In this document: positions 25,346-50,079 of the stretch, piece after piece
Position numbering within the stretch: the stretch's first letter is position 1
Layout: every line of letters begins with the position of its first letter
DNA from: Octopus vulgaris
Taxonomy: Eukaryota
DNA: 64,000 bases
Direction of reading: 5' to 3'
NCBI GenBank assembly: GCA_951406725.2
Contig: OX597815.1
Span: forward strand, 44,888,001-44,952,000
Notes under the pieces: model-generated
Told to the model about the DNA's origin: nothing
The model's database searches: none
Seen by the model: only the letters and a program-made list of their open reading frames with translations
Program-made: the position numbers and the translations under genes

Positions 25346-27184
25346 TAGAAATTTTACTGAGGTCGACAAAATGCTTAGCGGTATTTCTTTAGGCTCTTTA
25401 CTTTCTGAGTTCATATTTTGCCGAGATCGACTGTGCTTTTTGGATTCGATAAAACAAGTGCCTGGAGCGTAATCGAGTTACATTCATCCCCTAACTTTGC
25501 TGACCTTGTGCAAATACTTGTGAGAAATTTAGTCTATAATTAGTGGTTTATTTGAATACTCGTACGTCAAAAGAGTTCTCACTGAATTAAATTTAAACAA
25601 TAACACTACATATTTTAATCTATTACAGCTGGGGTTTTTTCTCTTCTTTTATTCTTTTACTAGTTTCAATCGCTAAACTGCAACCATGCTAGGGCACCGC
25701 GTTGGAGGATTTAATCAAACAGCTTGCCCCCATTAATTCGTCCCTTTTGCCAAAGTGCTAAGTTAAGGAAACGAAAGTAAACCAACGCCGGTTTTTAAAC
25801 GGTGGTAGGAGATAAAGCGAAAGACATGCATGCGTACGCATATACACGTGTGTGTGTGTATATATACACACACAGACATGTACACACGACTAGCTTCACA
25901 CAGCTTCCGTTTACCAAATTCATCCTCCAGCTAATGATCTGCTCGGATCTTAATAGATCCGAGGTACCACGCACTGAAACTGAACCCGAAACACGGTTGA
26001 GAAGCGAACTTCTTAACCACATAGCTATATTATTTTTTCTTCTTTCTAATTCTATAAATCATATATGATTTGTATACGATCACCAGCCCCATTATGGATA
26101 CGTATTTTAGTGAAAGAGCCTCAAGATGGTCCCTAGACTTGCTGCAAGAGAACCGAAAGAACTTTGGCTCAGAATCAAAATATTGTTTTCTTGCCCTAGA
26201 ATGCAGGTCTAAATATTTTCTGGTGTTTAGTTACGCCCCTTTACGTCAAATACCGAAAAATACTGAGATTCAGCAATTTCGCATGTTACCTACTTATTTG
26301 TCGTCGTGTGCGAGTAATGCGAGAAAACAGTGATGGTGCCGACTAACTCCATTTACTTAATAATAGAATTAATATTTAGGGACCTTTATGTTATTTCTAA
26401 ATGTTTACTGTGTAAAGAAACGAACTATTCCTTTCCAAATTGTAACCCAATTTGTACACTATAGAAATGGGGGTATCCACCACAATCACCTCCTTAGAAT
26501 ATCAAGTTTTCTGCTTCAGCTGAAATATTGTCGGTGTCAAGTTTGCAATGTCACTATTTAGAATGAACATTATGTACTACTATAATGACCGTACAAACAC
26601 TGACCTTGAGAATAGTTAAAATACATCATCATTACCATCATCATCATCGTCATCATCATCATTATCATCATCATTATTGCAGTCATTATTCACCAGTGTC
26701 AGTTCGTATAAGTTGCAGATATTTAAAGAGAAGAAATTATTTACCAAGGTACGTACGTGTGTACGAGTATCTTAATGCCTTAATACAAAACACATTTTTG
26801 GCTTTGTATCATTTTCAACACACCGTACTGGTTTGACATTCATTACATATTTCTTTGTTGATTGTCAATGTTGGAGAGGTTTATCGCATTAATTATAAAT
26901 TCAGTTATATTTTTATTTGAATTATTCTTATTTATTTCTTATTTGACTTTTATTTATTTTCGTTTGGAGAAACACTCCATGATCGTTAATGTTTTATTAT
27001 TTCCCTGTTTACAATTAATCAATGCAACACACACAGACACACATCAATTTAGAAATTTGACAAGCGTCTGTGTTATCACATACTCCTTGTAGTATGTGAT
27101 GGACAAATGGATGTCGTCTGTTACTGTAGATTTCCTAGATCAAAATGGACCTGGAGCTAAGCAATAACAATAAAAATATTTCAA

Positions 27185-27302
27185 ACACTACTTTTATCAT
27201 ACTGAAAAGATCGGTTCTCGTCTGATCACCGAAGTTAAGCAACGTCGAGCCTAATTAGTACTTAGATGAGTGATTGCTTCGGGAACCTACATGCTGTAAT
27301 TA
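27185..27302 (+). pseudogene. 5S rRNA-derived pseudogene (unit 1)
   Basis: 'cggttctcgtctgatcaccgaagttaagcaacgtcgagcctaattagtacttagatgagtga...gggaa...tgctgta' matches metazoan 5S rRNA including the box A region. Ends and box C are diverged. Confidence 0.85.
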
Positions 27303-27773
27303 GTTTCAGATGCTGGCGTGGCTGTATGTTGTAAGAAGTTTGCTTCCGAACCATACAGTCCCGGATTCAAACCCACTGCGTGACATCTTAGGCAAGCGTC
27401 TTCGCCAAAAGCGGTTCAGCAAAAGCGACGATGAAGACGACAATGAATATACATTATTTGTGCGGCACATCTCCTCTGCTAGTCTTTTAATCGACCTGCA
27501 GTTCACCGGGTTTGAGAAAATGCTTACCTTTAAAAAAAAAAATACGGTTATATTTTCTTGTTTGCATTACTTTTGTAATATTTACACGTTACAAGATGAC
27601 CGACCAAACCCTTGTTAGTGGATTTGGTAAACGGAAACTGAAAGACACATGTCGTAGCAGTGCTCCAGCATGGCTTCAGTCAAATGACTGAAACAAGTTA
27701 AAGAATAAAATAATGTGCATGTGTGTGCGTGTGCGTGTGCGAGTGTGTGTGTGTGTGTGGGTGTGGGTGTGTG

Positions 27774-27819
<46 letters not shown>

Positions 27820-28014
27820 TGTGCTTGTCCCCGACCACCGCTTGACAACTGGTATTATGTTTACGTTCTTGTAACTTCGCAGTTCGGCAAAAGACCTCAA
27901 TAGAATAAGTAGTTTACAAAAAATGAGTACTGGGGTCGATTCATTCCACTAAAACATTCTTCTAAGTGGTGCCCCAGCATGGCCACATTATAATGACTGA
28001 AACAAGATAAAAGA

Positions 28015-28263
28015 TATTTTCGTGCTCGGTGTCACTAGAACTCGATGTCGATGATGAGTGAGAAGCCGATCAAGAAGCCATGGCGTCTCCTCTTTCAGCG
28101 TGGAACCGGCTGAAGACTAACAGCACCACTCTGTCTTCCTGTGCTGGTGAGATGAAAATAGAGATTAGAGATAGGAGATTAGCGAATGGTGGGAAATCAC
28201 TAAGAAAAGCTGCAACATTAATGAAACTAGATAAAAATCAAATAAAATAGACATATAAATATA

Positions 28264-28315
<52 letters not shown>

Positions 28316-28700
28316 AATTAGGGGAGTGGAACGGGTAAAATCTAGACTACATATGTTTCTTAGCGAGCCGATCCTCTAATGTAATAATTACTCAACGAGG
28401 GACACTCTGCTTAGCTAATCATCAGGCCGAGAATACCTTAATTACATAAACGTTACATTGTCGCTTGGAATGTCAAAGTTAACTCACCGCAGATGTGCGC
28501 TGAAATGAGTAGTGAAACTTGAAGAATAGAATAATAAAAAAACAAATACTTGAAGAAATAAAACGGCCAAAAAGGATGGCGTCAAATATGTGGGAGTAGA
28601 AGTCGTATAAAAAAGAAAGAACAGGAAAAAAATAAATGAAAGAAAGCAGTAGACGTTACTCCCTACGGAGATCCGCAACTACGCGGTTTTTCGAAAGGGA
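28015..28700 (-). pseudogene. Putative spliced gene 5' fragment on the minus strand (present in all five units)
   Basis: Donor CG|GTGAGT at 28487, then branch CTAAT, a pyrimidine tract and CAG/CACAG acceptors at ~28144/28139. The downstream exon reads gccATG-A-S-*-SASHSSSTSSSSDTEHE and then runs into a SINE. Confidence 0.45.
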
Positions 28701-28945
28701 TTCAATGTCCGATGTAATGTTGAGACTGGGACACAACGAACTAATTAATATGCTGACTGAAGTAGATATGATATAGATAAGTACCAAGCGCTCCTAGACA
28801 ATAATTTGATAAATTTTGGTAAAGACCGCAGTTAGTAGTCGATCAACTATCGAAAATTTAAGAGTCTTCTTGCGTCCGTTTAAGCCAAAAATTGTCTGGG
28901 AGCAGCAATGAAGAGTCCAGATTGAGAAAGAAACGCAGCTCACCT

Positions 28946-29029
<84 letters not shown>

Positions 29030-29267
29030 CACCATCATTATATATTTCACTATTTTCCTCTATGTTATCACAACTTTCAACTAAGTTTTCTAGTCGTATA
29101 ATAAATACCTCACGCCATGGACACATCTCTCGCCCTCTTTTCTTTCTCCATCATTTTCTCTAATCACGTGAAAGCGTTTCCGACAGGCCAAGTAACGTGT
29201 ATGTATGTGTGCATGAATGTACGATATACACACACACACGCACACACACACACACACACACACATAC

Positions 29268-29299
<32 letters not shown>

Positions 29300-29328
29300 T
29301 TACATAGATACATATACACAAGAATACA

Positions 29329-29727
29329 TACAAGTTCAGGTTTATACCTGTAATTATTGAGGTCCTGGGATATGTAATGTACTGCCTAAATACCAATCTT
29401 GAGAAATTAGGCTTCCCAAAACCAGAAAGGAAACGGCTAATTCGAAGGCTACAGATGAAATCTATCACTGGAACTATAAAGATTTGTAAAACATTCCAGA
29501 AGTTAATCGTTTAAAATATATATGTGCAAGTCTAGATATACAACTATATGCATGAGAATACATACATAAGACATACAAATCTACACATACATGCATACAT
29601 ACACACACACATACATACATACATACATACGTACATACATACATACATACGTACGTAAGTACGTACATACATACATACATACATACATACATACATACAT
29701 ACATACATACATACGTACACACACACA

Positions 29728-29793
<66 letters not shown>

Positions 29794-29905
29794 CAAAAAT
29801 ACACTGTTGTTGATGTCGAAACCCCAATGAAGGAACCTTGGATTTAGGTTAGAAACCGGTTCTCTCTATATTGGCAAGAAATCTTGAAATAAACTGAATA
29901 ATGAC
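29329..29905 (+). mobile_element. REL-type LINE 3' tail in each unit (also ~37178, 42534, 50207, 63380)
   Basis: [61 protein letters not shown] (PVIIGALG-like motif). The UTR has (TACA)n expansions. Confidence 0.75.
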
Positions 29906-29938
29906 ATACATACATACATACATACATACATACATACA

Positions 29939-29970
<32 letters not shown>

Positions 29971-30630
29971 CACACACACTCATATATACATCTTCACACG
30001 TCCTGTTTTGTATTGAATGTATGGGCCGTTGTAGCAAAGAATTATAGTTGTTGTTGAATGGATATGTTAATTTCAGAATATATAAAAGTGAACAAAGAAT
30101 AGCAGCAAAATGGTTGGTTCGATGCCAGGTTTCAAATCTCAGCTGAATGTGTTGCTCATTCTTCAGATATTTAATACCATTTTAATGGTTTCGGTATTTG
30201 ATACAAAAGAGATGTTCCTTTTTTTTTCCTCAATCGGTTCTACACTTCGAATCTCGCTGGTATTATTGAATTTCTATTGCTGCAGAGTTTATTAAACAAA
30301 TACCAGTAACATCATTGGCATTATTCTATGAACCGAGTAATGAAAGAGAAATAAAAGCAAGGCATAATCCGCAGTAAAAAAAAGTAGAACTTTGGAATTT
30401 TTTCAATTTTCTTGTTCTCAAATACACTTGAAAGACAAAGATATGAATGCTATAAATCGTAATTTCAAAACTCCGATATTTTGAGAATGCAAAAAAGAAA
30501 GTATTCTATTGTTACATCATCACAATTACATGATTTTTTAAACACAAATTGAAAGAATGGAAGATTTTAAAACAAATATTATTGCGTTCTATTATACCTT
30601 TAGTCGAGAACTTTTGAGATATTCCATAAA

Positions 30631-30700
30631 TGACGTATGTTTAACCCCGCCCACTTTTGGTATTTTGGGCTATAAAAGGCCAGCGATTTCTCATTTCTAT
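30631..30700 (+). promoter_or_regulatory. Pol II core promoter (unit 1)
   Basis: TGACGTA at 30631, GC box CCCCGCCC at 30645-30652, TATAAAAG at 30671-30678. Identical in units 2-4. Confidence 0.7.
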
Positions 30701-30724
30701 CGAGGCACCAACACCGATCTAATC

Positions 30725-30786
30725 TGACATGATCTCAACTGATCTCGATCGGGGAAATTATAATCAGGTCAGTTGACATCAGGTCA
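30725..30786 (+). ncRNA. pre-miRNA-sized hairpin in exon 1 (also 38501-38562, 43881-43942, 53312-53373)
   Basis: 5' arm tgacatgatctcaactgatctcgat versus reverse complement of the 3' arm tgacctgatgtcaactgacct-gat, with a ~13-nt loop. Confidence 0.55.
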
Positions 30787-31024
30787 ACATACTTCGTTAC
30801 TGGTAAGTATACCAGGCGAGTACAAAACGAAGCTTTGTTTTGTTGACTTGCCAAGTCAGCATTAAAGTCTGCTTAGATGAGCATAAAATTATGTAAACTT
30901 GCTTGTTTACGTGCCCGTAACTAGCGGTTCGGCAAAAATACCGATAAAGTACCAGGCCCAGCAGATCACTTTTAATTTCCTCGATGATTAATTTGTATCA
31001 CTTGCATTCTATAGGAGCTCTGGG

Positions 31025-31276
31025 GTTCGATGAGAACCAACTTACCAACCTAGTCTGAAGGGAATAACACCTCGGTATTCTAGGACGAAGAAATCATGTA
31101 ATTGTGATGTAATTGTGATGACGTAACAATGCTTCGTGACAGGGTCCTCTTTCTCAGCCCTATCTAGCTCAGAGCCGGATATATAGAACGCTGTCACGAA
31201 GCATTCCATTCTTCGTCCTAGAATACCGAGGTGTTATTCCCTTCAGACCAGGTTGGTAAGTTGGTTCTCATCGAAC
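31025..31276 (+). repeat. Long inverted repeat / hairpin A (unit 1)
   Basis: Arms 31025-31092 and 31209-31276 are complementary at 67/68 positions. Inner stem 31128-31145/31188-31205; outer stem 31006-31023/31307-31324. Confidence 0.95.
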
Positions 31277-31609
31277 GCAGCCACCCTTACCCGTCTTGTG
31301 GATTAGCCAGAGTCTCTATAGAATACCGAGGTGTTATTCCCGCAGCCAGCCTTACCTGTCTTGTGGATTTACGGCACTCCTTCTGCCATTCAGATTACAT
31401 CTAATGAGACCGGGTTTAAATCTTTCCAGCGAGGCCGGTTGCAGCAAGAACTCCTCCGCCAGCAGACTCCTTAACACTCTCCAGGTGGCACCAGAGATAT
31501 CTCAGTCTCCCCAGACAACTCTTTAGCGGTTCCTGGCTGCACACGGAGCGCTTCACAAGTGATTTTCCCCCTCTCCACAAAAAGCGAAATAAGGAGTCGT
31601 TCCAGCTTG
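31209..31609 (-). mobile_element. Shuffled L1/Tx1-clade LINE ORF2 fragments, antisense to the putative transcript
   Basis: Minus strand reads KLERLL/FRFLWRGGKSLVKRSVC(S/C)QEPLKSCLG, matching the L1/Tx1 post-RT motif FxWxG...V...C..P...GGLG. Further peptide-like pieces EWQKECR*ALL, GNNTSVFYRD and FDENQLTNLV follow. Confidence 0.7.
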
Positions 31610-31613
31610 TTTA

Positions 31614-31950
31614 GCCCGATCCCTTCGACTAAAAATTGAAAGCAGTGCTCCTAACTTAACGGTTCGGCAAAAGGAACAATATAACATAAGTACCAGCGTT
31701 TCAAAAAAGCGCCCGATTCCTTCGACTAAAAATTGAAAGCGGAGCGCCTAACTTAGCGGTTCGGAAAAAGGACCCCGATACCTTCAAAAATTGGAAGCGG
31801 TGCTCCTAACTTAGCGGTTCGGCAGCGGTTCGGCAAAAGGACCAATAAAACATAAGTACCAGCGTTTCATAAAAGCGCCCGATTCCTTCGACTAAAAATT
31901 GAAAGCGGTGCTCCTAACTTAGCGCTTCGGCAAAAGGACCAATAAAACAA
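31614..31950 (+). repeat. ~95-bp minisatellite derived from the SINE family A body; copy number varies between units
   Basis: Unit 'cccgattccttcgactaaaaattgaaagcggtgctcctaacttagcggttcggcaaaaggaccaataaaacataagtaccagcgtttcaaaaaagcg'. Also at 39403-39690, 44755-44918 and 54186-54525. Confidence 0.85.
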
Positions 31951-32225
31951 TGATTAGGTCGGTTTTATGAACCCTTGAGTCTTTAAACACCCTCTGCAAC
32001 ATGCTGGTTGGTGTCATAACATAGTTGCAAGGTGTACGGGGAGTGTCACGTGACCGTATAGACTCTTAACCAGGCTCTTCTAGTGCAGGAAACCTGGGGG
32101 TTCCAACCAGAAATCGCAGTAATGTTTTAACTTCTACGTCTTGCCCTTTATTTTACAGGTAAAGGGCATATAGTTGATTCAAGAATTCACAGCACTTACA
32201 ATTAAACTTGATATAAAACTTGGCA

Positions 32226-32260
32226 AATAAAATATTTTAATGGTTTCGTTTGTTTTAGTA
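32226..32260 (+). terminator. Polyadenylation signal AATAAA with downstream GU/U-rich element
   Basis: 'aataaaatattttaatggtttcgtttgtttt'. A second AATAAA at ~32300 also has a U-rich tract. Confidence 0.45.
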
Positions 32261-32740
32261 TGAGTGAGAAAGAGACGCTGATTGGAACTTTTTAATACGA
32301 ATAAAATACAATAGAAATTTTTCGTTTATATTTGTGTTAATAGTATTGTTTCAGTGAGGAGCAGTGAGGTGTATTGTTTCAGTGGTGGGAAGAGAACAAA
32401 GATGATAAAATTCCCTTGACTCTACAATCATGGACTTATAGTCACCGCCCTTTATAAGCGGCGTCGTATTTGCAGGTTATGGTACTGGAATGACTTCTTC
32501 CCAGTATGTTTTCTCACCCCTTCCGTGATCAATAAAAATGAATCAAGTGCCTTATATTAGCGGAATACTTTTCTCGGTATTTGATCGGATTATCTACATT
32601 CAATTCAAACCTATCTTGGAACCAACTTTACTATTCTTCGTTTTTTCTCGATCGATATAAAAAAATCAAGCCAGAAGGGTCGATTGGCAGAACCATATGT
32701 GGGCGTTGTGATAGTTACAGCAATGCAGGTGTTAAATCAC

Positions 32741-33019
32741 CTGAATGTAAGTCAATTGGCGACCACCATTGTGACTTCCAGTTTCGTGCATAAATAGTGT
32801 AAGCCTCCCTTGGTCGATGTTATTATGCATCTACAATTCCACGTACCAAACTTATCGGCCTATAATAATCTTGCATGCATGGGCGGGTAGTCTTCTTCAA
32901 AACGTCAGGACCAGGTACGCACGTAGAATAGATACATGAACGTCGATCAGGGTGGGGCTACGCACTCTATGCACGAAAGTAGAGATCACAATGGTGCCCG
33001 CCTTTTGATTTACATTCAG
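32741..33019 (+). repeat. Long imperfect inverted repeat / hairpin B (unit 1)
   Basis: Left arm 32741-32847 (ctgaatgtaagtcaa..caccattgtga..tttcgtgcata..ggtcgatgtt..atcta) pairs with right arm 32914-33019 (tagat..aacgtcgatc..tatgcacgaaa..tcacaatggtg..ttgatttacattcag). Confidence 0.9.
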
Positions 33020-33899
33020 AGGTAAAAACCGATATCAAATTAAGACGTTACTATTGCTACACTTACTGCTGCTACACATCCTGAGAGACACTCGGTTGAT
33101 TAGGTCGGTTTTATGAACCCTTGAGTCTTTAAACAGGCACACTCCAGCCCCAGGCCCGCACGAGACCTCTGAAACATTACTGACGATGCATCCCAGAGCA
33201 TCTGCAAGTATTAGTAGTAGTAAGTAGTAAGTAGTAGTTAGGGTTAGGGTTTGATTTTGAAATTAAGGGAAAAAATGCATAGAAAAGATACATATACATA
33301 CATACACTTACATACACGCACACACGTACACACATGCACACATATATTAATAAATAAAATAAAATTTTAATTAGGACACCAAGTCAGGGTCAAGATTAGA
33401 TCATCATGCATATATGCATGCACATACAGACGTATTTTGAAATTTGCATAAACATGTACATGAACAAATCAAGATATACATCCATATAAATATCCATGTA
33501 TATGAAATTATGCATGCTGGCATGCTGTTTCCCGACCCACTGATTTCCTGACCCAACGTAGGGAAGTTTCTAGGTGTAGTGTTTACATAAAGAAAGAATA
33601 CAAGTGTGTTAAGCTTCACTACAGCTGTTTCAGACATGTTTTTAAAGATAATGATTTTCATTTGATTATAAACATATTTTGCAAGTAAGAATGTTTCGTA
33701 ATTCTTTGACTATGAGTGAGAGAATTGTGTGTGTGTATGCGCGCGCGTATGTGCGGTTATGTGTGTGCGCAAATGTGTGTGAGTTTGTGTGCATTTTCGT
33801 GTTTACGCGTGAGTCTGTGTGCTTGTGTGTAGATGGAATGATTTAAGATAACCGTCTACATAGATAACTAGCTAGCCGAATATATTAAATAAAAAGATC

Positions 33900-34530
33900 G
33901 ATTAGATTAGATTAGATTAGATTAGATTGGGTGGATGGATGGATGAATGGATGGATGGACGGATGGTTGAATGGATGGATGGATGGATGGATGGATGGAT
34001 GGATGGATGGATGGATGGAAGATGGATGAATGGATGGATGGTTGGATGGACGGATGGATGAATGGATGGATGGTTGGATGGACGGATGGATGAATGGATA
34101 GATGGATGGAAGGTGGATGGATGGATGGATGGACGGACGGACGGATGGATCCCTGGATGGGCGGATGGATAGGTACATAGATGGATGGGATAGCGATAGA
34201 GATAAGAGATGGATGGATGGATGGATGGATGGATGGATAAATGGATGATCGATGAAATGATGGATCGATGGATGGATCGATGGATGGAAGGATGGATGGA
34301 TGGGTAGGTAGATGAATGGATGGATGGATGGAGATTGGTAGAGATAAGGATAGCGATAGAGACAAGAGATGGATCGATGGATGGATGGATGGATGGATGG
34401 AAGGCTGGATGGCTGGATGGATGGATGGATAGATGGATGGAGATAGTGATAAGGATAGCGAAAGAAATAGTGATAGATAGAGATAGATATAGATAGATAA
34501 ATAGATAGAGAGATCTAGAGAGAGAGAGCA
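33900..34530. repeat. Compound (TTAGA)n-(GGAT)n-(GATA)n satellite at unit end (also 46866-47447, 56460-57024)
   Basis: Direct inspection. Confidence 0.95.
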
Positions 34531-34634
34531 ATGTATGTTTGTTTGTATTACACGTGTGCACCTCTTTATCAGTCTACATGTTCCTAAAAAAGAAACATTG
34601 TATAACATCATATCTATATATATATATATATATA

Positions 34635-34685
<51 letters not shown>

Positions 34686-34869
34686 GTATATAAGTGCATT
34701 TCTTATTGTCAATGTTGGAGAGGTTTATCGCATTAATTATAAATTCAGTTATATTTTTATTTGAATTATTCTTATTTATTTCTTACTTGACTTTTATTTA
34801 TTTTCGTTTGGAGAAACATTCCATGATCGTTAATGTTTTATTATTTCTCTGTTTACAAGGAATCAATGC

Positions 34870-34923
<54 letters not shown>

Positions 34924-35059
34924 TTAGAAATTTGACAATCGTCTGGGTAATCACATACTCCTTGTAGTATGTGATGGTCAAATGGATGTCGTCTGTTACT
35001 GTAGATTTCCTAGATCAAATTGGACCTGGAGCTAAGCAATAACAATAAAAATATTTCAA

Positions 35060-35176
35060 ACACTACCTTTATCATACTGAAAAGATCGGTTCTCGTCTGA
35101 TCACCGAAGTTAAGCAACGCCGAGTCTAATTAGTACTTAGATGAGTGATTGCTTCGGGAACCTACATGCTGTAATT
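35060..35176 (+). pseudogene. 5S rRNA-derived pseudogene (unit 2)
   Basis: Copy of 27185-27302. Confidence 0.82.
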
Positions 35177-35595
35177 AGTTTCAGATGCTGGCGTGGCTGT
35201 ATGTTGTAAGAAGTTTGCTTCCGAACCATAAAGTTCCGGATTCAAACCCACTGCGTGACATCTTGGGCAAGCGTCTTCGGCAAAAGCGGTTCAGCAACAG
35301 CGACGATGAAGACGACGATGAATAGACATTATTTGTGCGGCACATCTCCTCTGCTAGTCTTTTAATCGACCTGCAGTTCACCGCATTTGAGAAAAATGCT
35401 TACCTTTAAAAAAGAAAATACGGTTATATTTTCTTGTTTGCATTACTTTTGCAATATTTACACGTTACAAGATGACCGTCCAATCCCTTGTTAGTGGATT
35501 TGGTAAACGGAAACTGAAAGACACATGTCGTAGCAGTGCTCCAGCATGTCTTCAGTCAAATGACTGAAACAAGTTAAAGAATAAAAGAATGTGTA

Positions 35596-35664
<69 letters not shown>

Positions 35665-36785
35665 GTCTGTTTGTCTCTGTGCTTGTCCCCGACCACCGCT
35701 TGACAACTGGTATTATGTTTACGTTCTTGTAACTTCGCAGTTCGGCAAAAGACCTCAATAGAATAAGTAGTTTACAAAAAATGAGTACTGGGGTCGATTC
35801 ATTCCACTAAAACATTCTTCTAAGCGGTGCCCCAGCATGGCCACATTATAATGACTGAAACAAGATAAAAGATATTTTCGTGCTCGGTGTCACTAGAACT
35901 CGATGTCGATGATGAGTGAGAAGCCGATCAAGAAGCCATGGCGTCTCCTCTTTCAGCGTGGAACCGGCTGAAGACTAACAGCACCACTCTGTCTTCCTGT
36001 GCTGGTGGGATGAAAATAGAGATTAGAGATAGGAGATTAGCGAATGGTGGGAAATCACTAAGAAAAGCTGCAAAACATTAATGAAACTAGATAAAAATCA
36101 AATAAAATAGATATATAAATATATGTGTGTGTATGTATATATATATAAATATATATCCAAATTAGGGGAGTGGAACGGGTAAAATCTAGACTACATATGT
36201 TTCTTAGCGAGCCGATCCTCTAATGTAATAATTACTCAACGAGAGACACTCTGCTTGGCTAATCATCAGGCCGAGAATACCTTAATTACATAAACGTTAC
36301 GTTGTCGCTTGGAATGTCAAAGTTAACTCACCGCAGATGTGCGCTGAAATGAGTAGTGAAACTTCAAGAATAGAATAATAAAAAAACAAATACTTAAAGA
36401 AATAAAACGGCCAAAAAGGATGGGGTCAAATATGTGGGAGGAGAAGTCGTATAAAAAAGAAAGAACAGGAAAAAAATAAATGAAAGAAAGCAGTAGACGT
36501 TACTCCCTACGGAGATCCGCAACTACGCGGTTTTTCGAAAGGGATTCAATGTCCGATGTAATGTTGAGACTGGGAAACAACGAACTAATTAATATGCTGA
36601 CTGAAGTAGATATGATACAGATAAGTACCAAGCGCTCCTAGACAATAATTTGATAAATTTTGGTAAAGACCGCAGTTAGCAGTCGATCAACTATCGAAAA
36701 TTTAAGGGTCTTCTTGGGACCGTTTAAGCCAAAAATTGTCTGGGAGCAGCAATGAAGAGTCCAGATTGAGAAAGAAACGCAGCTC

Positions 36786-36853
<68 letters not shown>

Positions 36854-37061
36854 CACCATCATTATATATTTAACTATTTTCCTCTATGTTATCACAACTT
36901 TCAACTAAGTTTTCTAATCGTGTAATAAATACCTCACGCCATGGACACATCTCTCGCCCTCTTTTCTTTCTCCATCATTTTCTCTAATCACGTGAAAGCG
37001 TTTCCGACAGGCCAAGTAACGTGTATGTATGTGTGCATGAATGTACGATATACACACACAC

Positions 37062-37147
<86 letters not shown>

Positions 37148-37488
37148 TTACATAGATACATATACACAAGAATACATACAAGTTCAGGTTTATACCTGTA
37201 ATTATTGAGGTCCTGGGATATGTAATGCACTGCCTATATACCAATCTTGAGAAATTAGGCTTCCCAAAACCAGAAAGGAAACGGCTAATTCGAAGGCTAC
37301 AGATCAAATCTATCACTGGAACTATAAAGATTTGTAAAACATTCCAAAAGTTAATCGTTTAAAATATATATGTGCAAGTCTAGATATACAACTATATGCA
37401 TGAGAATACATACATAAGACATACATACGTACGTACGTACATACATACATACATACATACATACATACATACATACGTACGTACGTAC

Positions 37489-37519
<31 letters not shown>

Positions 37520-37538
37520 CACACACACATACACACCA

Positions 37539-37602
<64 letters not shown>

Positions 37603-37718
37603 GTACAAAAATACACTGTTGTTGATGTTGAAACACCAATGAAGGAACCTTGGATTTAGGTTAGAAACCGGTTCTTTCTATATTGGCAAGAAATCTTGAA
37701 ATAAACTGAATAATGACG

Positions 37719-37750
<32 letters not shown>

Positions 37751-38406
37751 CACACACACACTCATATATACATCTTCACACGTCCTGTTTTGTATTGAAT
37801 GTATGGGCCGTTGTAGCAAAGAATTATAGTTGTTGTTGAATGGATATGTTAATTTCAGAATATATAAAACTGAACAAAGAATAGCAGCAAAATAGTTGGT
37901 TCGATGACAGGTTTCAAATCTCAGCTGGATATGTTGCTCATTCTTCAGATATTTAATACCATTTTAATGGTTTCGGTATTTGATACAAAAGAGATGTTCC
38001 TTTTTTTTTCCTCAATCGGTTCTACACTTCGAATCTCGCTGGTATTATTGAATTTCTATTGCTGCAGAGTTTATTAAACAAATACCAGTAACATCATTGG
38101 CATTATTCTATGAACCGAGTAATGAAAGAGAAATAAAAGCAAGGCATAATCCGCAGTAAAAAAAAGTAGAACTTTGGAATTTTTTCAATTTTTCAAATAC
38201 ACTTGAAAGACAAAGATATGAATGCTATAAATCGTAATTTCAAAACTCCGACATTTTGAGAATGCAAAAAAAGAAAGTATTCTATTGTTACGTCATCACA
38301 ATTACATGATTTTTTAAACACAAATTGAAAGAATGGAAGATTTTAAAACAAATATTATTGCGTTCTGTTATACCTTTAGTCGAGAACTTTTGAGATATTC
38401 CATAAA

Positions 38407-39990
38407 TGACGTATGTTTAACCCCGCCCACTTTTGGTATTTTGGGCTATAAAAGGCCAGCGATTTCTCATTTCTATCGAGGCACCAGCACCGATCTAATC
38501 TGACATGATCTCAACTGATCTCGATCGGGGAAATTATAATCAGGTCAGTTGACATCAGGTCAACATACTTGGTTACTGGTAAGTATACCAGGCGAGTACA
38601 AAACGAAGCTTTGTTTTGTTGACTTGCCAAGTCAGCATTAAAGTCTACTTAGATGAGCATAAAATTATGTAAACTTGCTTGTTTACGTGCCCGTAACTTA
38701 GCGGTTCGTCAAAAATACCGATAAAGTACCAGGCCCAGCAGATCACTTTTAATTTCCTCGATGATTAATTTGTATCACTTGCATTCTATAGGAGCTCTGG
38801 GGTTCGATGAGAACCAACTTACCAACCTAGTCTGAAGGGAATAACACCTCGGTATTCTAGGACGAAGAAATCATGTAATTGTGATGTAATTGTGATGACG
38901 TAACAATGCTTCGTGACAGGGTCCTCTTTCTCAGCCCTATCTAGCTCAGAGCCGGATATATAGAACCCTGTCACGAAGCATTCCATTCTTCGTCCTAGAA
39001 TACCGAGGTGTTATTCCCTTCAGACCAGGTTGGTAAGTTGGTTCTCATCGAACGCAGCCACCCTTACCCGTCTTGTGGATTAGCCAGAGTCTCTATAGAA
39101 TACCGAGGTGTTATTCCCGCAGCCAGCCTTACCTGTCTTGTGGATTTGTCAAGAGTGCCTAACGGCACTCCTTCTGCCATTCAGATTACATCTAATGAGA
39201 CCGGGTTTAAATCTTTCCAGCCAGGCCGGTTGCAGCAAGCACTCCTCCGCCAGCAGACTCCTTAACACCCAGGTGGCACCAGAGATATCTCAGTCTCCCC
39301 ACACAACTCTTTAGCGGTTCCTGGCAGCACACGGAGCGCTTCACAAGTGATTTTCCCCCTCTTCACAAAAAGCGAAATAAGGAGTCGTTCCAGCTTGTTT
39401 AGCCCGATTCCTTCGACTAAAAATTGAAAGCGGTGCTCCTAACTTAACGTTTCGGCAAAAGGACCAATAAAACATAAGTACCAGCGTTTCAAAAAAGCGC
39501 CCGATTCCTTCGACTAAAAATTGAAAGCGGTGCTCCTAACTTAGCGGTTCGGCAGCGGTTCGGCAGCTGTTCGGCAAAAGGACCAATAAAACATAAGTAC
39601 CAGCGTTTCAAAAAAGCGCCCGATTCCTTCGACTAAAAATTGAAAGCGGTGCTCCTAACTTAGCGGTTCGGCAAAAGGACCAATAAAACAATGATTAGAT
39701 CGGTTTTATGAACCCTTGAGTCTTTAAACACCCTCTGCAACATGCTGGTTGGTGTCATAACATAGTTGCAAGGTGTTCGGGGAGTGTCACGTGACCGTAT
39801 AGACTCTTAACCAGGCTCTTCCAGTGCAGGAAACCTGGGGGTTCCAACCAGAAATCGCAGAAATGTTTTAACTTCTACGTCTTGCCCTTTATTTTACAGG
39901 TAAAGGGCATATAGTTGATTCAAGAATTCACAGCACTTACAATTAAACTTGATATAAAACTTGGCAAATAAAATATTTTTATGGTTTCGT
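38407..39990 (+). ncRNA. Putative hairpin-RNA gene with promoter (unit 2)
   Basis: TATA at 38447, donor at 38579, acceptor at 38791, hairpin A at 38802-39053. Hairpin B is deleted in this unit. Confidence 0.6.
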
Positions 39991-40227
39991 TTGTTTTAGT
40001 ATGAGTGAGGAAGAGACGCTGATTGGAACTTTTTAATACGAATAAAATACAAGAGAAATGATCGTTAATGTTTTATTATTTCTCTGTTTACAACGAATCA
40101 ATGCAACACACACACACAGATCAATTTAGAAATTTGACAATCGTCTGGGTTGGATGTCGTCTGTTACTGTAGATTTCCTACATCAAAATGGACCTGGAGC
40201 TAAGCAATGACGATAAAAATATTTCAA

Positions 40228-40344
40228 ACACTAATTTTATCATACTGAAAAGATCGGTTCTCGTCTGATCACCGAAGTTAAGCAACGCCGAGTCTAATTA
40301 GTACTTAGATGAGTGATTGCTTCGGGAACCTACATGCTGTAATT
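40228..40344 (+). pseudogene. 5S rRNA-derived pseudogene (unit 3)
   Basis: Copy of 27185-27302. Confidence 0.82.
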
Positions 40345-40776
40345 AGTTTCAGATGCTGGCGTGGCTGTATGTTGTAAGAAGTTTGCTTCCGAACCATAAA
40401 ATTCCGGATTCAAACCCACTGCGTGATATCTTCGGCAAGCGTCTTCGGCAAAAGCGGTTCAGCAACAGCGACGATGAAGACGACGATGAATAGACATTAT
40501 TTGTGCGGCACATCTCCTCTGCTAGTCTTTTAATCGACCTGCAGTTCACCGGGTTTGAGAAAATGCTTACCTTTAAGAAAAAAATACGGTTATATTTTCT
40601 TGTTTGCATTACTTTTGCAATATTTACACGTTACAAGATGACCGACCAAACCCTTTGGTAAACGGAAACTGAAAGACACATGTCGTAGCAGTGCTCCAGC
40701 ATGGCTTCAGTGAAATGACTGAAAAAGAATAAAAGAATGTGTATGTGTATGTGTGTACGTGTGCGTGTGCGTGTGC

Positions 40777-40881
<105 letters not shown>

Positions 40882-41347
40882 TCTGTGCTTGTCCCCGACC
40901 ACCGATTGACAACTGGTATTATGTTTACGTTCTTGTAACTTCGCAGTTCGGCAAAAGACCTCAATAGAATAAGTAGTTTACAAAAAATGAGTACTGGGGT
41001 CGATTCATTCGACTAAAACATTCTTCTAAGCGGTGCCCCAGCATGGCCACATTATAATGACTGAAACAAGATAAAAGATATTTTCGTGCTCGGTGTCACT
41101 AGTCCTCGATGTCGATGATGTGTGAGAAGCCGATCAAGAAGACATGGCGTCTCCTCTTTCAGCGTGGCACCGGCTGAAGACTAACAGCACCACTCTGTCT
41201 TCCAGTGCTGGTGAGATGTAAAAAGAGATTAGAGATAGGAGATTAGCGAATGGTGGGAAATCACTAAGAAAAGCTGCAAAACATTAATGAAACTAGATAA
41301 AAATCAAATAAAATAGACACATATATATATGTGTGTGTGTGTGTATG

Positions 41348-41393
<46 letters not shown>

Positions 41394-42267
41394 AATTGAG
41401 GGAGTGGAACGTGTAAAATCTAGACTACATATGTTTCTTAGCGAGCCGATCTTCTAATGTAATAATTATTCAACGAGAGACACTATGCTTAGCTAATCAT
41501 CAGGCCGAGAATACCTTAATTACATAAACGTTACATTGTCGCTTGGAATGTCCAAGTTAACTCACCGCAGATGTGCGCTGAAATGAGTAGTGAAACTTGA
41601 AGAACAGAATAATAAAAAACAAATACTTGAAGAAATAAAACGGCCAAGAAGTAGGAAAGCGGAGGATGGGGTCAAATATGTGGGAGTAGAAGTCGTATAA
41701 GAAAGAAAGAACAGGAAAAAAATAAATGAAAGAAAGCAGTAGACGTTACTCCCTACGGAGATCCGCAACTACGCGGTTTTTCGAAAGGGATTCAATGTCC
41801 GATGTAATGTTGAGACTGGGACACAACGAACTAATTAATATGCTGACTGAAGTAGATATGATATAGATAAGTACCAAGCGCTCCTAGACAATAATTTGAT
41901 AAATTTTGGTGAAGTAATTTTGGTAAAGACCGCAGTTAGCAGTCGATCAACTATCGAAAATTTAAGGGTCTTCTTGGGTCCGTTTAAGCCAAAAATTGCC
42001 TGGGAGCAGCAATGAATAGTCCAGATTGGGAAAGAAACGCAGCTCACCTCTCTCTCTGCCTTTCTTTAACCTCACCATCATTATATATTTAACTATTTTC
42101 CTCTATGTTATCACAACTTTCAACTAACTTTTCTAATCGTGTAATAAATACCTCACGTCATGGACACATCTCTCGCCCTCTTTTCTTTCTCCATCATTTT
42201 CTCTGATCACGTGAAACGTTTCCGACAGGCTAAGTAACGTGTATGTATGTGTGCATGAATGTACGAT

Positions 42268-42315
<48 letters not shown>

Positions 42316-42325
42316 ATATATATAC

Positions 42326-42497
42326 ACATAGTGACGTATATTTGCCATTTGAATATGGCTAACCCCTAAGGGTGGATGCTACTGTAGTTTGTAGCCCCAG
42401 GAAGACACCTTAGGCGTTAGCCATATTCAAATGGCAAATATACGTCACGATGTATTGCCGCTACATTTTATAACTCGCTCTGAGATTTATCATTGCT
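42326..42497. mobile_element. Unit-3-specific ~170-bp insertion with ~41-bp inverted arms in (TA)n
   Basis: gtgacgtatatttgccatttgaatatggctaacccctaagg (42331-42371) versus ccttaggcgttagccatattcaaatggcaaatatacgtcac (42408-42448). Absent from the other units. Confidence 0.75.
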
Positions 42498-42889
42498 ATA
42501 TATACATAGATACATATATACAAACATACATACATACAAGTTCAGGTTTATACCTGTAATTATTGAGGCCCTTGGATATGTAATGCACTGCCTAAATACC
42601 AATCTTGAGAAATTAGGCTTCCCAAAACCAGAGAGGAAACGACTAATTCGAAGGCGACAGATCAAATCTATCACTGGAACTATAAAGATTTGTAAAACAT
42701 TCCAGAAGTTAATCGTTTAAAATATATATGTGCATGTCTAGATATACAACTATATGCATGAGAATACATACATAAGACATACAAATCTGCACATACATGC
42801 ATACATACATGCATACATACATACATACATACATACATACATACATACATACATACATACATAAATACATACATACATACATACGTACA

Positions 42890-42983
<94 letters not shown>

Positions 42984-43093
42984 CAAAAATACACTGTCGT
43001 TGATGTTGAAACCCCAATGAAGGAACCTTGGATTTAGGTTAGAAACCGGTTCTTTCTATATTGGCAAGAAATCTTGAAATAAACTGAATAATG

Positions 43094-43124
<31 letters not shown>

Positions 43125-43786
43125 CACACACACACTCATATATACATCTTCACACGTCCTGTTTTGTATTGAATGTATGGGCCGTTGTAGCAAAGAATTA
43201 TAGTTGTTGTTGAATGGATATGTTAATTTCAGAATATATAAAAGTGAACAAAGAATAGCAGCAAAATAGTTGGTTCGATGACAGGTTTCAAATCTCAGCT
43301 GAATGTGTTGCTCATTCTTCAGATATTTAATACCATTTTAATGGTTTCGGTATTTGATACAAAAGAGATGTTCCTTTTTTTTTCCTCAATCGGTTCTACA
43401 CTTCGAATCTCGCTGGTATTATTGAATTTCTATTGCTGCAGAGTTTATTAAACAAATACCAGTAACATCATTGGCATTATTCTATGAACCGAGTAATGAA
43501 AGAGAAATAAAAGCAAGGCATAATCCGCAGTAAAAAAAAGTAGAACTTTGGAATTTTTTCAATTTTCTTGTTCTCAAATACACTTGAAAGACAAAGATAT
43601 GAATGCTATAAATCGTAATTTCAAAACTCCGACATTTTGAGAATGCAAAAAAGAAAGTGTTCTATTGTTACGTCATCACAATTACATGATTTTTTAAACA
43701 CAAATTGAAAGAATGGAAGATTTTAAAACAAATATTATTGCGTTCTATTATACCTTTAGTCGAGAACTTTTGAGATATTCCATAAA

Positions 43787-45220
43787 TGACGTATGTTTAA
43801 CCCCGCCCACTTTTGGTATTTTGGGCTATAAAAGGCCAGCGATTTCTCATTTCTATCGAGGCACCAACACCGATCTAATCTGACATGATCTCAACTGATC
43901 TCGATCGGGGAAGTTATAATCAGGTCAGTTGACATCAGGTCAACATACATGGTTACTGGTAAGTATACCAGGCGAGTACAAAACGAATCTTTGTTTTGTT
44001 GACTTGCCAAGTCAGCATTAAAGTCTGCTTAGATGAGCATAAAATTATGTAAACTTGCTTGTTTACGTGCCCGTAACTTAGCGGTTCGGCAACAATACCG
44101 ATAAAGTACCAGGCCCAGCAGATCACTTTTAATTTCCTCGATGATTAATTTGTATCACTTGCATTCTATAGGAGCTCTGGGGTTCGATGAGAACCAACTT
44201 ACCAACCTAGTCTGAAGGGAATAACACCTCGGTATTCTAGGACGAAGAAATCATGTAATTGTGATGTAATTGTGATGACGTAACAATGCTTCGTGACAGG
44301 GTCCTCTTTCCCAGCCCTATCTAGCTCAGAGCCGGATATATAGAACCCTGTCACGAAGCATTCCATTCTTCGTCCTAGAATACCGAGGTGTTATTCCCTT
44401 CAGACCAGGTTGGTAAGTTGGTTCTCATCGAACGCAGCCACCCTTACCCGTCTTGTGGATTAACCAGAGTCTCTATAGAATACCGAGGTGTTATTTGTCA
44501 AGAGTGCCTAACGGCACTCCTTCTGCCATTCAGATTACATCTAATGAGACCGGGTTTAAATCTTTCCAGCGAGGCCGGTTGCAGCAAGAACTCCTCCGCC
44601 AGCAGACTCCTTAACACCCTCCTGGTGGCACCAGAGATATCTCAGTCTCCCCAGACAACTCTTTAGCGGTTCCTGGCAGCACACGGAGCGCTTCACATGT
44701 GATTTTCCCCCTCTCCACAAAAAGCGAAATAAGGAGTCGTTCCAGCTTGTTTAGCCCGATTCCTTCGACTAAAAATTGAAAGCGGTGCTCCTAACTTAGC
44801 GGCTAAAGGACCAATAAAACATAAGTACCAGCGTTTCAAAGAAGCGCCCGATTCCTTCGACTAAAAATTGAAAGCGGTTTTCCTAACTTAGCGGTTCGGC
44901 AAAAGGACCAATAAAACAATGATTAGGTCGGTTTTATGAACCCTTGAGTCTTTAAACACCCTCTGCAACATGCTGGTTGGTGTCATAACATAGTTGCAAG
45001 GTGTACGGGGAGTGTCACGTGACCGTATAGACTCTTAACCAGGCTCTTCCAGTGCAGGAAACCTGGGGGTTCCAACCAGAAATCGCAATAATGTTTTAAC
45101 TTCTACGTCTTGCCCTTTATTTTACAGGTAAAGGGCATATAGTTGATTCAAGAATTCACTGCACTTACAATTAAACTTGATATAAAACTTGGCAAATAAA
45201 ATATTTTAATGGTTTCGTTT
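43787..45220 (+). ncRNA. Putative hairpin-RNA gene with promoter (unit 3)
   Basis: TATA at 43827, donor at 43959, hairpin A at 44182-44433. Confidence 0.6.
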
Positions 45221-45722
45221 GTTTTAGTATGAGTGAGGAAGAGACGCTGATTGGAACGTTTTAATACGAATAAAATACAAGAGAAATTTTTCGTTTATAT
45301 TTGTGTTAATAGTATTGTTTCAGTGAGGAGCAGTGAGGTGTATTGTTTCAGTGGTGGGAAGAGAACAAAGTGGATAAAATTCCCTTGACTCTACAATCAT
45401 GGACTTACCGCTCTTTATAAGCGGTGTCGTATTTGCAGGTTATGGTACTGGAATGACTTCTTCCCGGTATGTTTTCTCACGCCTTCCGTGATCAATAAAA
45501 CCCTTCCGTGATCAATAAAAATGAATCAAGTGCCTTATATTAGCGGAATACTTTTCTCGGTATTTGATCGGATTATCTACATTCAATTCAAACCTCTCTT
45601 GGAACCAACTTTACTATTCTTCGTTTTTTCTTGATCGATATAAAAAATGAAGCCAGAACGGTCGATTGGCAGAACCATATATGGGCGTTGTGATAGTTAT
45701 AGCAATGCAGGTGTTAAAGCAC

Positions 45723-46001
45723 CTGAATGTAAGTCAATTTGCGGCCACCATTGTGACTTCCAGTTTCGTGCATAAATAGTGTAAGCCTCCCTTGGTCGAT
45801 GTTATCATGCATCTACACTTCCACGTACCAAAATTATCGGCCTATAATAATCTTGCATGCATGGGCGGGTAGTCTTCTTCAAAACGTCAGGACCAGGTAC
45901 GCACGTAGAATAGATACATGAACGTCGACCAGGGTAGGGCTACGCACTCTATGCACGGAAGTAGAGATCACAATGGTGCCCGCCTTTTGATTTACATTCA
46001 G
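45723..46001 (+). repeat. Hairpin B (unit 3)
   Basis: Copy of 32741-33019. Confidence 0.9.
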
Positions 46002-47533
46002 AGGTAAAAACCGATATCAAATTAAGACGTTACTATTGCTACACTTACTGCTGCTACACATCCTGAGAGACACTCGGTTGAATAGCTCTCCATCACTAAC
46101 AGGCACACTCCAGCCCCAGGCCCGCACGAGACCTCTGAAACATTACTGACGATGCATCCCAGAGCATCTCCAAGTATTAGTAGTTGTAAGTAGTAAGTAG
46201 TAGTTAGGGTTAGGGTTTGATTTTGAAATTAAGGGAAAAAATGCATAGAAAAGATACATATACATACGTACGCTTACATACACGCACACACGTACACACA
46301 TGCTCACATATATTAATAAATAAAATAAAATTTTAATTAGGACACCAAGTCAGGGTCAAGATTAGATCATCATGCATATATCCATGCACATACAGACGTA
46401 TTTTGAAATTTGCATAAACATGTACATGAACAAATCAAGATATACATCCATATAAATATCCATGTATATGAAATTATGCATGCTGGCATGCTGTTTCCCG
46501 ATCCACTGATTTCCTGACCCAACGTAGGGAAGTTTCTAGGTGTAGTGTTTACACAAAGAAAGAATACAAGTGTGTTAAGCTTCACTACAGCTGTTTCAGA
46601 CATGTTTTTAAAGATAATGATTTTCATTTGATTATAAACATATTTTGCAAGTAAGAATGTTTCGTAATTCTTTGACTATGAGTGAGAGAATTGTGTGTGT
46701 GTGTGCGCGCGCGTATGTGCGGTTATGTGTGTGCGCAAATGTGTGTGGGTTTGTGTGCATTTTCGTGTGTACGCGTGAGTCTGTGTGCTTGTGTGTAGAT
46801 GGAATGATTTAAGATAACCGTCTACATAGATAACTAGCTAGCTGAATACATAAAATAAAAAGATCGATTAGATTAGATTCGATTAGATTAGATTGGGTGG
46901 ATGGATGGATGGATGGATGGATGGACGGATGGATGGAAGATGGATGAATGGATGGATGGTTGGATGGACGGATGGATGAATGGATGGATGGTTGGATGGA
47001 CGGATGGATGAATGGATAGATGGATGTAAGGTGGATGGATGGATGGATGGACGGACGGACGGACGGATGGATCCCTGGATGGGCGGATGGATAGGTACAT
47101 AGATGGATGGGATAGCGATAGAGATAAGAGATGGATGGATGGATGGATGGATGGATGGATGAATGGATGATCGATGAAATGATGGATCGATGGATGGATC
47201 GATGGATGGAAGGATGGATGGAAGGGTAGGTAGATGAATGGATGGATGGATGGAGATTGGTAGAGATAAGGATAGCGATAGAGACAAGAGATGGATCGAT
47301 GGATGGATGGATGGATGGAAGGCTGGATGGCTGGATGGATGGATGGATAGATGGATGGAGATAGTGATAAGGATAGCGAAAGAAATAGTGATAGATAGAG
47401 ATAGATATAGATAGATAAATAGATAGAGAGATCTAGAGAGAGAGAGAAATGTATGTTTGTTTGTATTACACGTGTGCACCTCTTTATCAGTCTACATGTT
47501 CCTAAAAAAAGAAAAATTGTATAACATCATATA

Positions 47534-47606
<73 letters not shown>

Positions 47607-47788
47607 GTATATAAGTGCATTTCTTATTGTCAATGTTGGAGAGGTTTATCGCATTAATTATAAATTCAGTTATATTTTTATTTGAATTATTCTTATTTAT
47701 TTCTTACTTGACTTTTATTTATTTTCGTTTGGAGAAACATTCCATGATCGTTAATGTTTTATTATTTCTCTGTTTACAAGGAATCAAT

Positions 47789-47868
<80 letters not shown>

Positions 47869-48008
47869 CAATTTAGAAATTTGACAATCGTCTGGGTAAT
47901 CACATACTCCTTGTAGTACGTGATGGTCAAATGGATGTCGTCTGTTACTGTAGATTTCCTAGATCAAAATGGACCTGGAGCTAAGCAATAACAATAAAAA
48001 TATTTCAA

Positions 48009-48125
48009 ACACTACCTTTATCATACTGAAAAGATCGGTTCTCCTCTGATCACCGAAGTTAAGCAACGCCGAGTCTAATTAGTACTTAGATGAGTGATTG
48101 CTTCGGGAACCTACATGCTGTAATT
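48009..48125 (+). pseudogene. 5S rRNA-derived pseudogene (unit 4)
   Basis: Copy of 27185-27302. Confidence 0.82.
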
Positions 48126-48587: not shown

Positions 48588-48669
<82 letters not shown>

Positions 48670-49788: not shown

Positions 49789-49824
<36 letters not shown>

Positions 49825-50079
49825 CTATCTCTTTCTCTCTCCCTCTCTCTCTCTCTCTCTCTGCCTTTCACCATCATTATATATTTAACTATTTTCCTCT
49901 ATGTTATCACAACTTTCAACTAAGTTTTCTAATCGTGTAATAAATACCTCACGCCATGGACACATCTCTCGCCCTCTTTTCTTTCTCCATCATTTTCTCT
50001 AATCACGTGAAAGCGTTTCCGACAGGCCAAGTAACGTGTATGTATGTGTGCATGAATGTACGATATACACACACACAGG

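Follow-up and report, generated by a model that had tools for sequence, protein, structure and literature searches.

The closest described systems to the locus reported here are the hairpin RNAs (hpRNAs) of Drosophila and the inverted-repeat dsRNAs that are hyper-edited by ADAR. hpRNAs, such as hp-CG4068, the hp-tHMG tandem clusters and Nmy/Tmy, are defined by Dcr-2-dependent siRNAs of 21-22 nt, originate de novo and occur as tandem and dispersed copies (PMC10317233). Hyper-editing targets dsRNA derived from repeats, with octopus among the highest (PMC5625713). A survey of molluscs that included an octopus reported one Dicer, for miRNAs, and neither an Argonaute nor a signature of the siRNA pathway; the same report allows that rare cell types may have escaped it and suggests that editing melts endogenous dsRNA in molluscs (PMC12479628). 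Very long miRNA hairpins are reported to be apparently missing from molluscs (PMC12553114). Our literature search, made mostly without subscription papers, found no description of a comparable hairpin-RNA system in cephalopods.

We found that a tandem array in the genome of Octopus vulgaris carries copies of a long hairpin whose two arms are fragments of a LINE. Our best explanation, to which we give about an even chance, is that a low-copy scaffold with a LINE fold-back was multiplied to ten copies or more, that it is likely transcribed, and that ADAR likely edits the transcript, which is not diced to siRNAs. Positions below and in Table 1 are those of the window, that is, the whole stretch of 64,000 nt that was analysed.

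The window had been described in an earlier note as containing four near-identical tandem copies of a hairpin-RNA gene, a candidate source of endo-siRNAs or miRNAs. The four copies are present, but they belong to a longer array, 77 kb in length, with 10 hairpin copies or more. The array runs into a 100-N assembly gap at its end, and therefore 10 is a lower bound. The hairpin copies are 3.3-11.4 kb apart, and their cassettes are 92-96% identical to copy 1, indels included. The promoter is kept in 9 of 10 array copies and a third duplex (32741-33019) in 7 of 10. The array unit also contains microsatellites, common repeats and one decayed piece of 5S rRNA sequence. The four copies in the window represent one duplicated event and are not independent occurrences.

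Arrays of 5S rDNA with linked passenger sequences are a known system, and the array resembles them in having one 5S-like piece per tandem unit. It differs in that this piece is decayed: it shares 80-83% identity with a true 5S copy and scores 43-48 bits, compared with 104-116 bits for the true-like copies (47 scored), which cluster on contig C4. A functional 5S rDNA array was rejected because the units do not each have an intact 5S gene; the array is a segmental tandem duplication rather than 5S rDNA. Rfam at a relaxed threshold matched nothing in the array sequence but 5S and microsatellite noise, and a phage collection gave no match. Around the array, inspection by eye for a host gene found transposon remnants and low-complexity frames alone, although small exons may escape such inspection.

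Table 1. Features of the array and of its first unit in the window, with the other copies in the window.
Feature	Position	Strand	Remarks
Tandem segmental array	26861..64000, on to window-equivalent 103,955 (C2:44,914,861-44,991,955)	+	10 hairpin copies
Scaffold 5' half: upstream region, promoter, exon 1, donors	30004..30890	+	low-copy, non-coding
CRE half-site 30631, GC box 30645-30652, TATAAAAG 30671	30631..30678	+	predicted promoter
62-nt hairpin, predicted exon 1	30725..30786	+	-24.1 kcal/mol, z -4.25
Predicted donor GTAAGT 30803 and second donor-like site 30816	30803..30821	+	
Fragment of abundant dispersed repeat	30904..30953	.	matches in 7/20 control stretches
3' end of LINE ORF2, shuffled and with internal deletions	30954..31616	-	antisense to predicted transcript, inverted arm excepted
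Arm 1	31013..31092 (paired 31025-31092)	+	LINE-sense inverted copy, reads GALGFDENQLTNL
Bulge	31091..31130	-	reverse complement of 30508-30536 from the same unit, present twice
Inner 17-bp stem and loop	31128..31205	+	contains strand switch at 12-bp inverted repeat
Arm 2	31209..31276	+	antisense to LINE
Sub-repeats of ~119 bp from abundant dispersed repeat	31614..31945	.	number variable
Scaffold 3' half: acceptor 2 (exon start 32159), AATAAA 32226, 32300	31947..32700	+	also in dispersed relatives
Third duplex, old inverted duplication of scaffold sequence	32741..33019	+	-128.5 kcal/mol, z -11
Decayed 5S rRNA pseudogene	35058..35177; further at 27183, 40227, 48007, 57560	+	43-48 bits
Copy 2	37786..40059	+	truncated after exon 2
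Copy 3	43160..46856	+	
Copy 4	52612..56449	+	

The scaffold of the unit is ~3 kb long and non-coding, and it supplies the predicted promoter, exon 1, two donors, acceptor 2 and the poly(A) signals. Motif positions and an ORF check bore out the earlier description: the unit is non-coding, and its signals are Pol II-like. The TATA box, CRE half-site, GC box and GTAAGT donor are present in all four window copies: TATAAAAG is at 30671, 38447, 43827 and 53258, preceded each time by TGACGTA at a distance of ~40 nt and followed by GTAAGT at 132 nt. The two acceptors (predicted exon starts 31015 and 32159) and the AATAAA signals were also found, acceptor 1 at the start of arm 1 of the long hairpin. 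There is no real ORF, as had been claimed; the longest that begins with ATG has 40 aa, in unspliced or predicted spliced forms. Each of the nine promoter-bearing array copies (9/9) has an intact TATA box, first donor and pair of acceptors, and the second donor-like site has GC in 8/9 and GT in 1/9 and in most relatives of the scaffold. In 200 kb of control DNA, the combination of CRE, GC box and TATA had 0 occurrences, and GTAAGT followed TATAAAAG in 0/17 cases.

A genome search with 30600-31400 gave dispersed matches that are copies of a LINE with RT and zinc-finger domains. An intact member of this source family has a CCHC-bearing ORF1 and an EN-RT-zinc-finger ORF2 of 1134 aa, and the family is presumably of the L1-Tx1 type. 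The two ORFs are its likeness to L1-Tx1-type LINEs; the array differs in retaining a scrambled, non-coding 0.66-kb remnant alone. Recently active L1-Tx1 families are among those listed for an octopus (PMC13282606). In the array unit, ~960 nt of the LINE 3' end are squeezed to 660 nt, in pieces of 13-100 nt (30954-31616). Both arms of the 68-bp duplex are fragments of the 3' end of ORF2 (EN-RT type, from the dispersed LINE), a source that the earlier note had missed. This duplex had been noticed before, and folding of 31025-31276 supports it (-160 kcal/mol, z -22), with arms complementary at 67 of 68 positions.

Arm 2 was shuffled before it was copied: arm 1 is its reverse complement, with 12 further LINE bases, and so the inversion came later than some of the shuffling. 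All three older LINE copies that we checked have the 12-bp inverted repeat of the strand switch, and the one young copy does not; the fold-back likely began at this repeat of the LINE's own. Together with the bulge, which is templated locally, we infer that the repeat is a mark of template switching. Among the 10 array copies, 4/68 sites of arm 1 and 1/68 of arm 2 are polymorphic, compared with 4-7% of sites in the flanks. The changes are not compensatory, and no significant extra conservation of the arms relative to the flanks was found among these copies.

The rest of the unit includes a fragment of an abundant dispersed repeat that is presumably a SINE. The ~119-bp sub-repeats carry AATAAA at 31844 and 31941, and most copies have an earlier AATAAA. 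The third duplex has arms identical at 69/91 positions, one of them homologous to the scaffold relative C9b. An imperfect duplex of ~100 bp had been claimed in three of the four window copies, and we found it in copies 1, 3 and 4 and not in copy 2. Its mismatches show no strand bias (8 G-U pairs on the plus strand, 6 on the minus). An origin of this duplex from a MITE was rejected: genome-wide there are only the 7 array copies and no dispersed copies with terminal inverted repeats. As background, fold-backs with arms of at least 60 nt, identity of at least 90% and a spacer of at most 300 nt were found in 6 of 20 arbitrarily chosen control stretches of 10 kb. Thus, a duplex like the 68-bp one is not rare in this genome.

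We compared the unit with contigs from 4 of 24 listed sequencing runs. Two of these runs, X5 and X6, belong to one study and their kind is unrecorded. One X5 contig spans the whole hairpin (31014-31431) and has A>G changes at 31225, 31236, 31245 and 31247, all in arm 2 and within 23 nt; X6 shares three of the four. These sites are A in 10/10 genomic copies and in X2, a large DNA-like run with another organism label. The ratio of A>G to T>C, copy variants and other LINE loci included, is 14:2 in X5, 11:0 in X6 and 7:7 in X2. Among the 40 of 76 differences listed, nine others in X5 (30477, 30516, 30711, 30795, 31190, 31538, 31644, 31676 and 31682) are alleles shared with other array copies or X2, which indicates that the X5 organism is very close to the source of the genome. 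The A>G changes may be strain alleles, since X5 and X6 come from one study that has no matched DNA run. Nevertheless, the clusters in arm 2 are likely due to ADAR editing, in contigs that are not on record as RNA.

The direction of the changes makes transcription of the plus strand and folding in vivo likely, although contigs by themselves show neither strand nor transcript ends directly. The Pol II transcript proposed in the earlier note therefore survives in part: transcription and folding of the long hairpin are likely, and its start at ~30700 and its splicing are unconfirmed because contigs of X5 (30595-31043) and X6 (30511-30937) run through the TATA box and the donor unspliced. Neither of the predicted junctions, 30802^31015 and 30802^32159, was listed in the X5 and X6 contigs, which give little or no cover beyond ~32040. 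Run X1 (share 0.10) gave short patches alone. Contigs across the hairpin junction occur at near identity under three organism labels (A, B and D).

The proposal of an endo-siRNA locus did not fare as well. A genome search gave one Dicer_dimer match and four RNase III matches, of which two are at a Dicer locus on contig C11, one on C4 and one on C3. The C11 locus is of the Dicer-1 type (E ~1e-130, compared with 1e-48 to Dicer-2). The C4 locus is an intronless, 5'-truncated retrocopy of the C11 gene, Dicer-1-like and 92-100% identical per exon, and our guess is that the C3 match is Drosha. One Dicer gene was found, of the miRNA type, and exon-wise searches gave no siRNA Dicer of the Dcr-2 type, although a fast-evolving Dicer could escape them. 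This agrees with the molluscan report of no siRNA Dicer, Argonaute or signature; in the one supplementary file of that report that was searched, there was no match to four hairpin terms or to a Dicer peptide (PMC12479628). The donor is crossed unspliced in the contigs, and the arms are closer to decayed LINE copies than to the intact young subfamily (see below), both of which speak against an endo-siRNA locus, as does the frequency of comparable fold-backs in the control stretches (6 of 20).

The array unit resembles Drosophila hpRNAs in being a predicted Pol II non-coding unit, in its long inverted repeat (68+17 bp, z -22) derived from a fragment of another locus, and in having tandem and dispersed copies (PMC10317233). 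It differs in that no Dicer-2-type gene was found, that its best matches are decayed copies, and that its content is a LINE rather than a host or drive gene; its splicing and siRNAs are putative. We do not class the unit as an hpRNA: the layout is hpRNA-like, but the Dicer-2 pathway that hpRNAs depend on was not found.

Our best explanation instead accounts for the locus in the following steps. A LINE would have inserted into a low-copy, promoter-like, non-coding scaffold, and its fragment, in antisense orientation, would then have been deleted internally and shuffled; this order is our reconstruction. A template switch then probably folded the fragment back into a hairpin of 68+17 bp. The unit would have been amplified at least tenfold by unequal crossing-over, presumably without selection on the hairpin. 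To judge from the direction of the A>G changes, the plus-strand transcript would fold into dsRNA in vivo, and an enzyme that we take to be ADAR would edit and loosen this dsRNA, instead of Dicer cutting it to siRNAs. Editing and dicing can coexist.

It is possible, though we consider it unlikely, that the array is a single-strand piRNA source, in which 660 nt of antisense LINE sequence, multiplied tenfold, would be transcribed from the scaffold promoter and the hairpin would be incidental. The LINE pieces run against the direction of the predicted transcript. At 87 genomic sites, a 26-mer of arm 2 matches with at most 2 mismatches; the array contains 20 of these sites, and of the 67 others 6 are exact, whereas the reversed 26-mer, as a control, has 0 matches. 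The earlier idea is thus supported in that the hairpin contains selfish-element sequence. In addition, PIWI and piRNAs are reported to be widely expressed in molluscs, with transposon-rich clusters (PMC6128900), and octopus transposons to be mostly unmethylated (PMC9476566).

The LINE copies that are matched best, however, are relics. At five of the six loci with exact matches there is no frame of more than 214 codons, and at the sixth (L026/L116) none of more than 172. In contrast, a young subfamily has dispersed copies that are 99-100% identical, several with frames of more than 880 codons. This intact young subfamily is 84% identical to the older one and ~84-89% identical to the array pieces where these are long. 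We compared matches in 30 LINE loci, less L136 and L138. With 21-mers of arm 2 and at most 2 mismatches, 16-20 of 48 matched in four older copies, but 1-3 of 48 in five others (four near-identical young copies and the intermediate L133). With 28-mers and at most 3 mismatches, the numbers were 71-136 of 636 in the four older copies and 15-37 of 636 in the five others. The better fit of the hairpin is thus to relics, and not to the LINE that is likely active. Like molluscan piRNA clusters, the array is a non-coding locus that is likely transcribed and contains transposon fragments in antisense, but each unit holds only 0.66 kb from a single older LINE subfamily; the molluscan clusters are reported to be enriched for young elements, and the array's closest LINE copies are decayed (PMC6128900).

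The scaffold has relatives elsewhere, which bear on a further alternative. Six dispersed relatives, at ~70-78% identity, contain exon 1 (two on C9, one on C15, two on C17 and one on C18), and three more are partial. In all six exon-1-bearing relatives, a fold-back starts 0-3.5 kb downstream of the TATA position. Elsewhere in these loci, 4 of 36 bins have one (Fisher P 4e-5), and among control intervals the share is 23-25%. Upstream fold-backs within 3.5 kb were found in 0 of 6. The sample is six and the width of the interval was chosen after the data were seen. Over 18 threshold settings, the binomial P was 0.0002-0.007 in 10 (intervals of 3.5-5 kb), 0.016-0.05 in 3 and at least 0.08 in 5, and 0.08-1 at the strictest setting. 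We regard the association as a lead rather than a result. It counts against our best explanation because a passive origin would not predict these fold-backs, and we count against it as well the gathering of three fold-backs in the array unit and the intact TATA box, first donor and acceptors of the nine promoter-bearing copies.

These findings could reflect a family of hairpin-RNA genes with a shared Pol II promoter and exon-1 cassette, in which every dispersed member captured a fold-back of its own and this member was amplified tenfold for anti-LINE small RNAs made via the miRNA Dicer or PIWI, a reading that we hold to be rather improbable. Somewhat more doubtful still is a small family of hairpin-RNA genes with a shared Pol II start that repeatedly acquired different fold-backs, whose transcripts the single Dicer would process; the array member would have been amplified against a LINE. 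This reading widens the earlier idea of a hairpin-RNA gene. The downstream fold-backs of the relatives, their absence upstream and the likely folding in vivo favor such a family, as does the de novo origin of Drosophila hpRNAs, in tandem or dispersed (PMC10317233). Against it, promoter, exon 1 and upstream DNA are about equally diverged: pairwise identity is 76-80% for these three and for the donors, and 72% for the intron. The TATA box was seen intact in 3 of 6 relatives, and stronger conservation of the promoter among them was not found. The fold-backs are mutually unrelated, and those of 2 of the 6 relatives are common repeats (one an inverted pair, one a palindromic repeat), while the others have no or few matches in the control set. 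No shared frame that would suggest a protein-coding downstream exon was seen in the scaffold. The genome search gave no further relatives for an independent test (0 of 9 motif matches were relatives), an siRNA-type Dicer was not found, and the contigs are unspliced across the donor.

Very unlikely, by contrast, is a multi-copy microRNA host gene with its product from the 62-nt hairpin in predicted exon 1. Folding supports this hairpin, which had also been claimed; it is of pre-miRNA size and stable (z -4.25), and young miRNAs are reported to be numerous in octopuses (PMC9699675). But Rfam has no match for it, the basal stem is weak, and the hairpin, including the would-be mature arm, is not conserved. 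The fold was not predicted in 4 of the 5 scaffold relatives folded (z +0.2 to -1.1; z -2.3 in C9b), and C18a is without most of the hairpin. Its tightness in the array is due to a deletion of ~21 nt relative to C17a and C17b. Among the array copies, 3 of its 62 sites vary, without compensation. That the hairpin is not retained among the relatives counts against the earlier proposal.

Least probable of all is an untranscribed segmental duplication, with X5 and X6 as shallow DNA runs and the A>G changes as alleles of another strain: the unrecorded kind of run and the extension of contigs upstream of the TATA box would fit, but all four listed changes in arm 2 are A>G and clustered, X5 and X6 differ at one of the sites, and X2 is without an A>G bias.

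We therefore return to a low-copy scaffold whose LINE fold-back is likely transcribed and edited. The array unit resembles the hyper-edited inverted-repeat dsRNAs in its near-perfect, transposon-derived stem with a short loop (PMC5625713); the clustered A>G changes, in what is presumably a non-coding RNA, would be a further likeness. It differs in that its stem arose within a single shuffled LINE fragment, by internal fold-back, rather than from two neighbouring copies or a palindromic element, and in being tandemly amplified behind a shared promoter-like scaffold. On this likeliest reading, the array is a clear, mappable case of a LINE fragment turned into edited dsRNA, and as such ordinary. 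Its stem is defined, the donor of its sequence is known and there are ten copies of it; it thus offers a precise test locus for the fate of endogenous long dsRNA in molluscs, which are reported to be without an siRNA pathway. If the association between scaffold and fold-backs in all six relatives holds, the scaffold would be a reusable hairpin-RNA cassette, and if the reading as a cassette family is true, there would be hairpin-derived small RNAs in a phylum reported to be without endo-siRNAs.

Acceptor 2 of the scaffold, a low-copy non-coding unit, reads CAG followed by GTAAAG (window 32157-32164), so that a donor-like motif directly abuts the acceptor. Three relatives of the scaffold also retain AG-GTAA at this position, and the site resembles a recursive splice site. 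Predicted exon 1 is rich in AGGTCA/TGACCT-like half-sites (window 30725-30790). Because of these, its short hairpin may be due to palindromic binding sites in the DNA, and not to a structure of the RNA. Within the scaffold, a 150-bp segment (window 31955-32110) is a repeat of wider dispersal; contig depth over it is high in both X5 and X6, contig sets from sequencing runs of one study.

One unit of the tandem hairpin array is interrupted by a Penelope-like element (see table). Since this element sits inside a single unit, it is younger than the amplification of the array. Located 5' of the array are frames, picked out by eye, that we take to be RT-like (decayed) and Helitron-like (short). In a control stretch on contig C1 (L146:2104-4716), an inverted arrangement with near-perfect arms (~0.6 kb, 98-100%) stands against a 360-bp tandem repeat.

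Features in the window and on contig C4 of the genome assembly searched (G000); L-numbers are loci fetched from it
Feature	Location	Strand	Description
Penelope-like element	window 58680-62374	-	RT frame of 740 codons; weak GIY-YIG match in an overlapping frame
RT-like frames	window 12300-14670	-	by eye
Helitron-like frame	window 16374-16685	+	by eye
Dicer C-terminus retrocopy	L191:4399-5568, G000:C4:17.36 Mb	-	intronless, 5'-truncated
True 5S gene cluster	G000:C4:35.21-35.33 Mb (L040-L046)	both	period ~5.2 kb

The Dicer retrocopy spans the end of RNase IIIa, RNase IIIb and the dsRBD in an uninterrupted frame of 389 codons. It is 92-100% identical to the Dicer exons on contig C11, and its junction has no start codon.

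Loci L122-L127, L130 and L188 belong to a young LINE subfamily whose dispersed copies are 99-100% identical. ORF2 is open in several of them. The subfamily was likely active recently.
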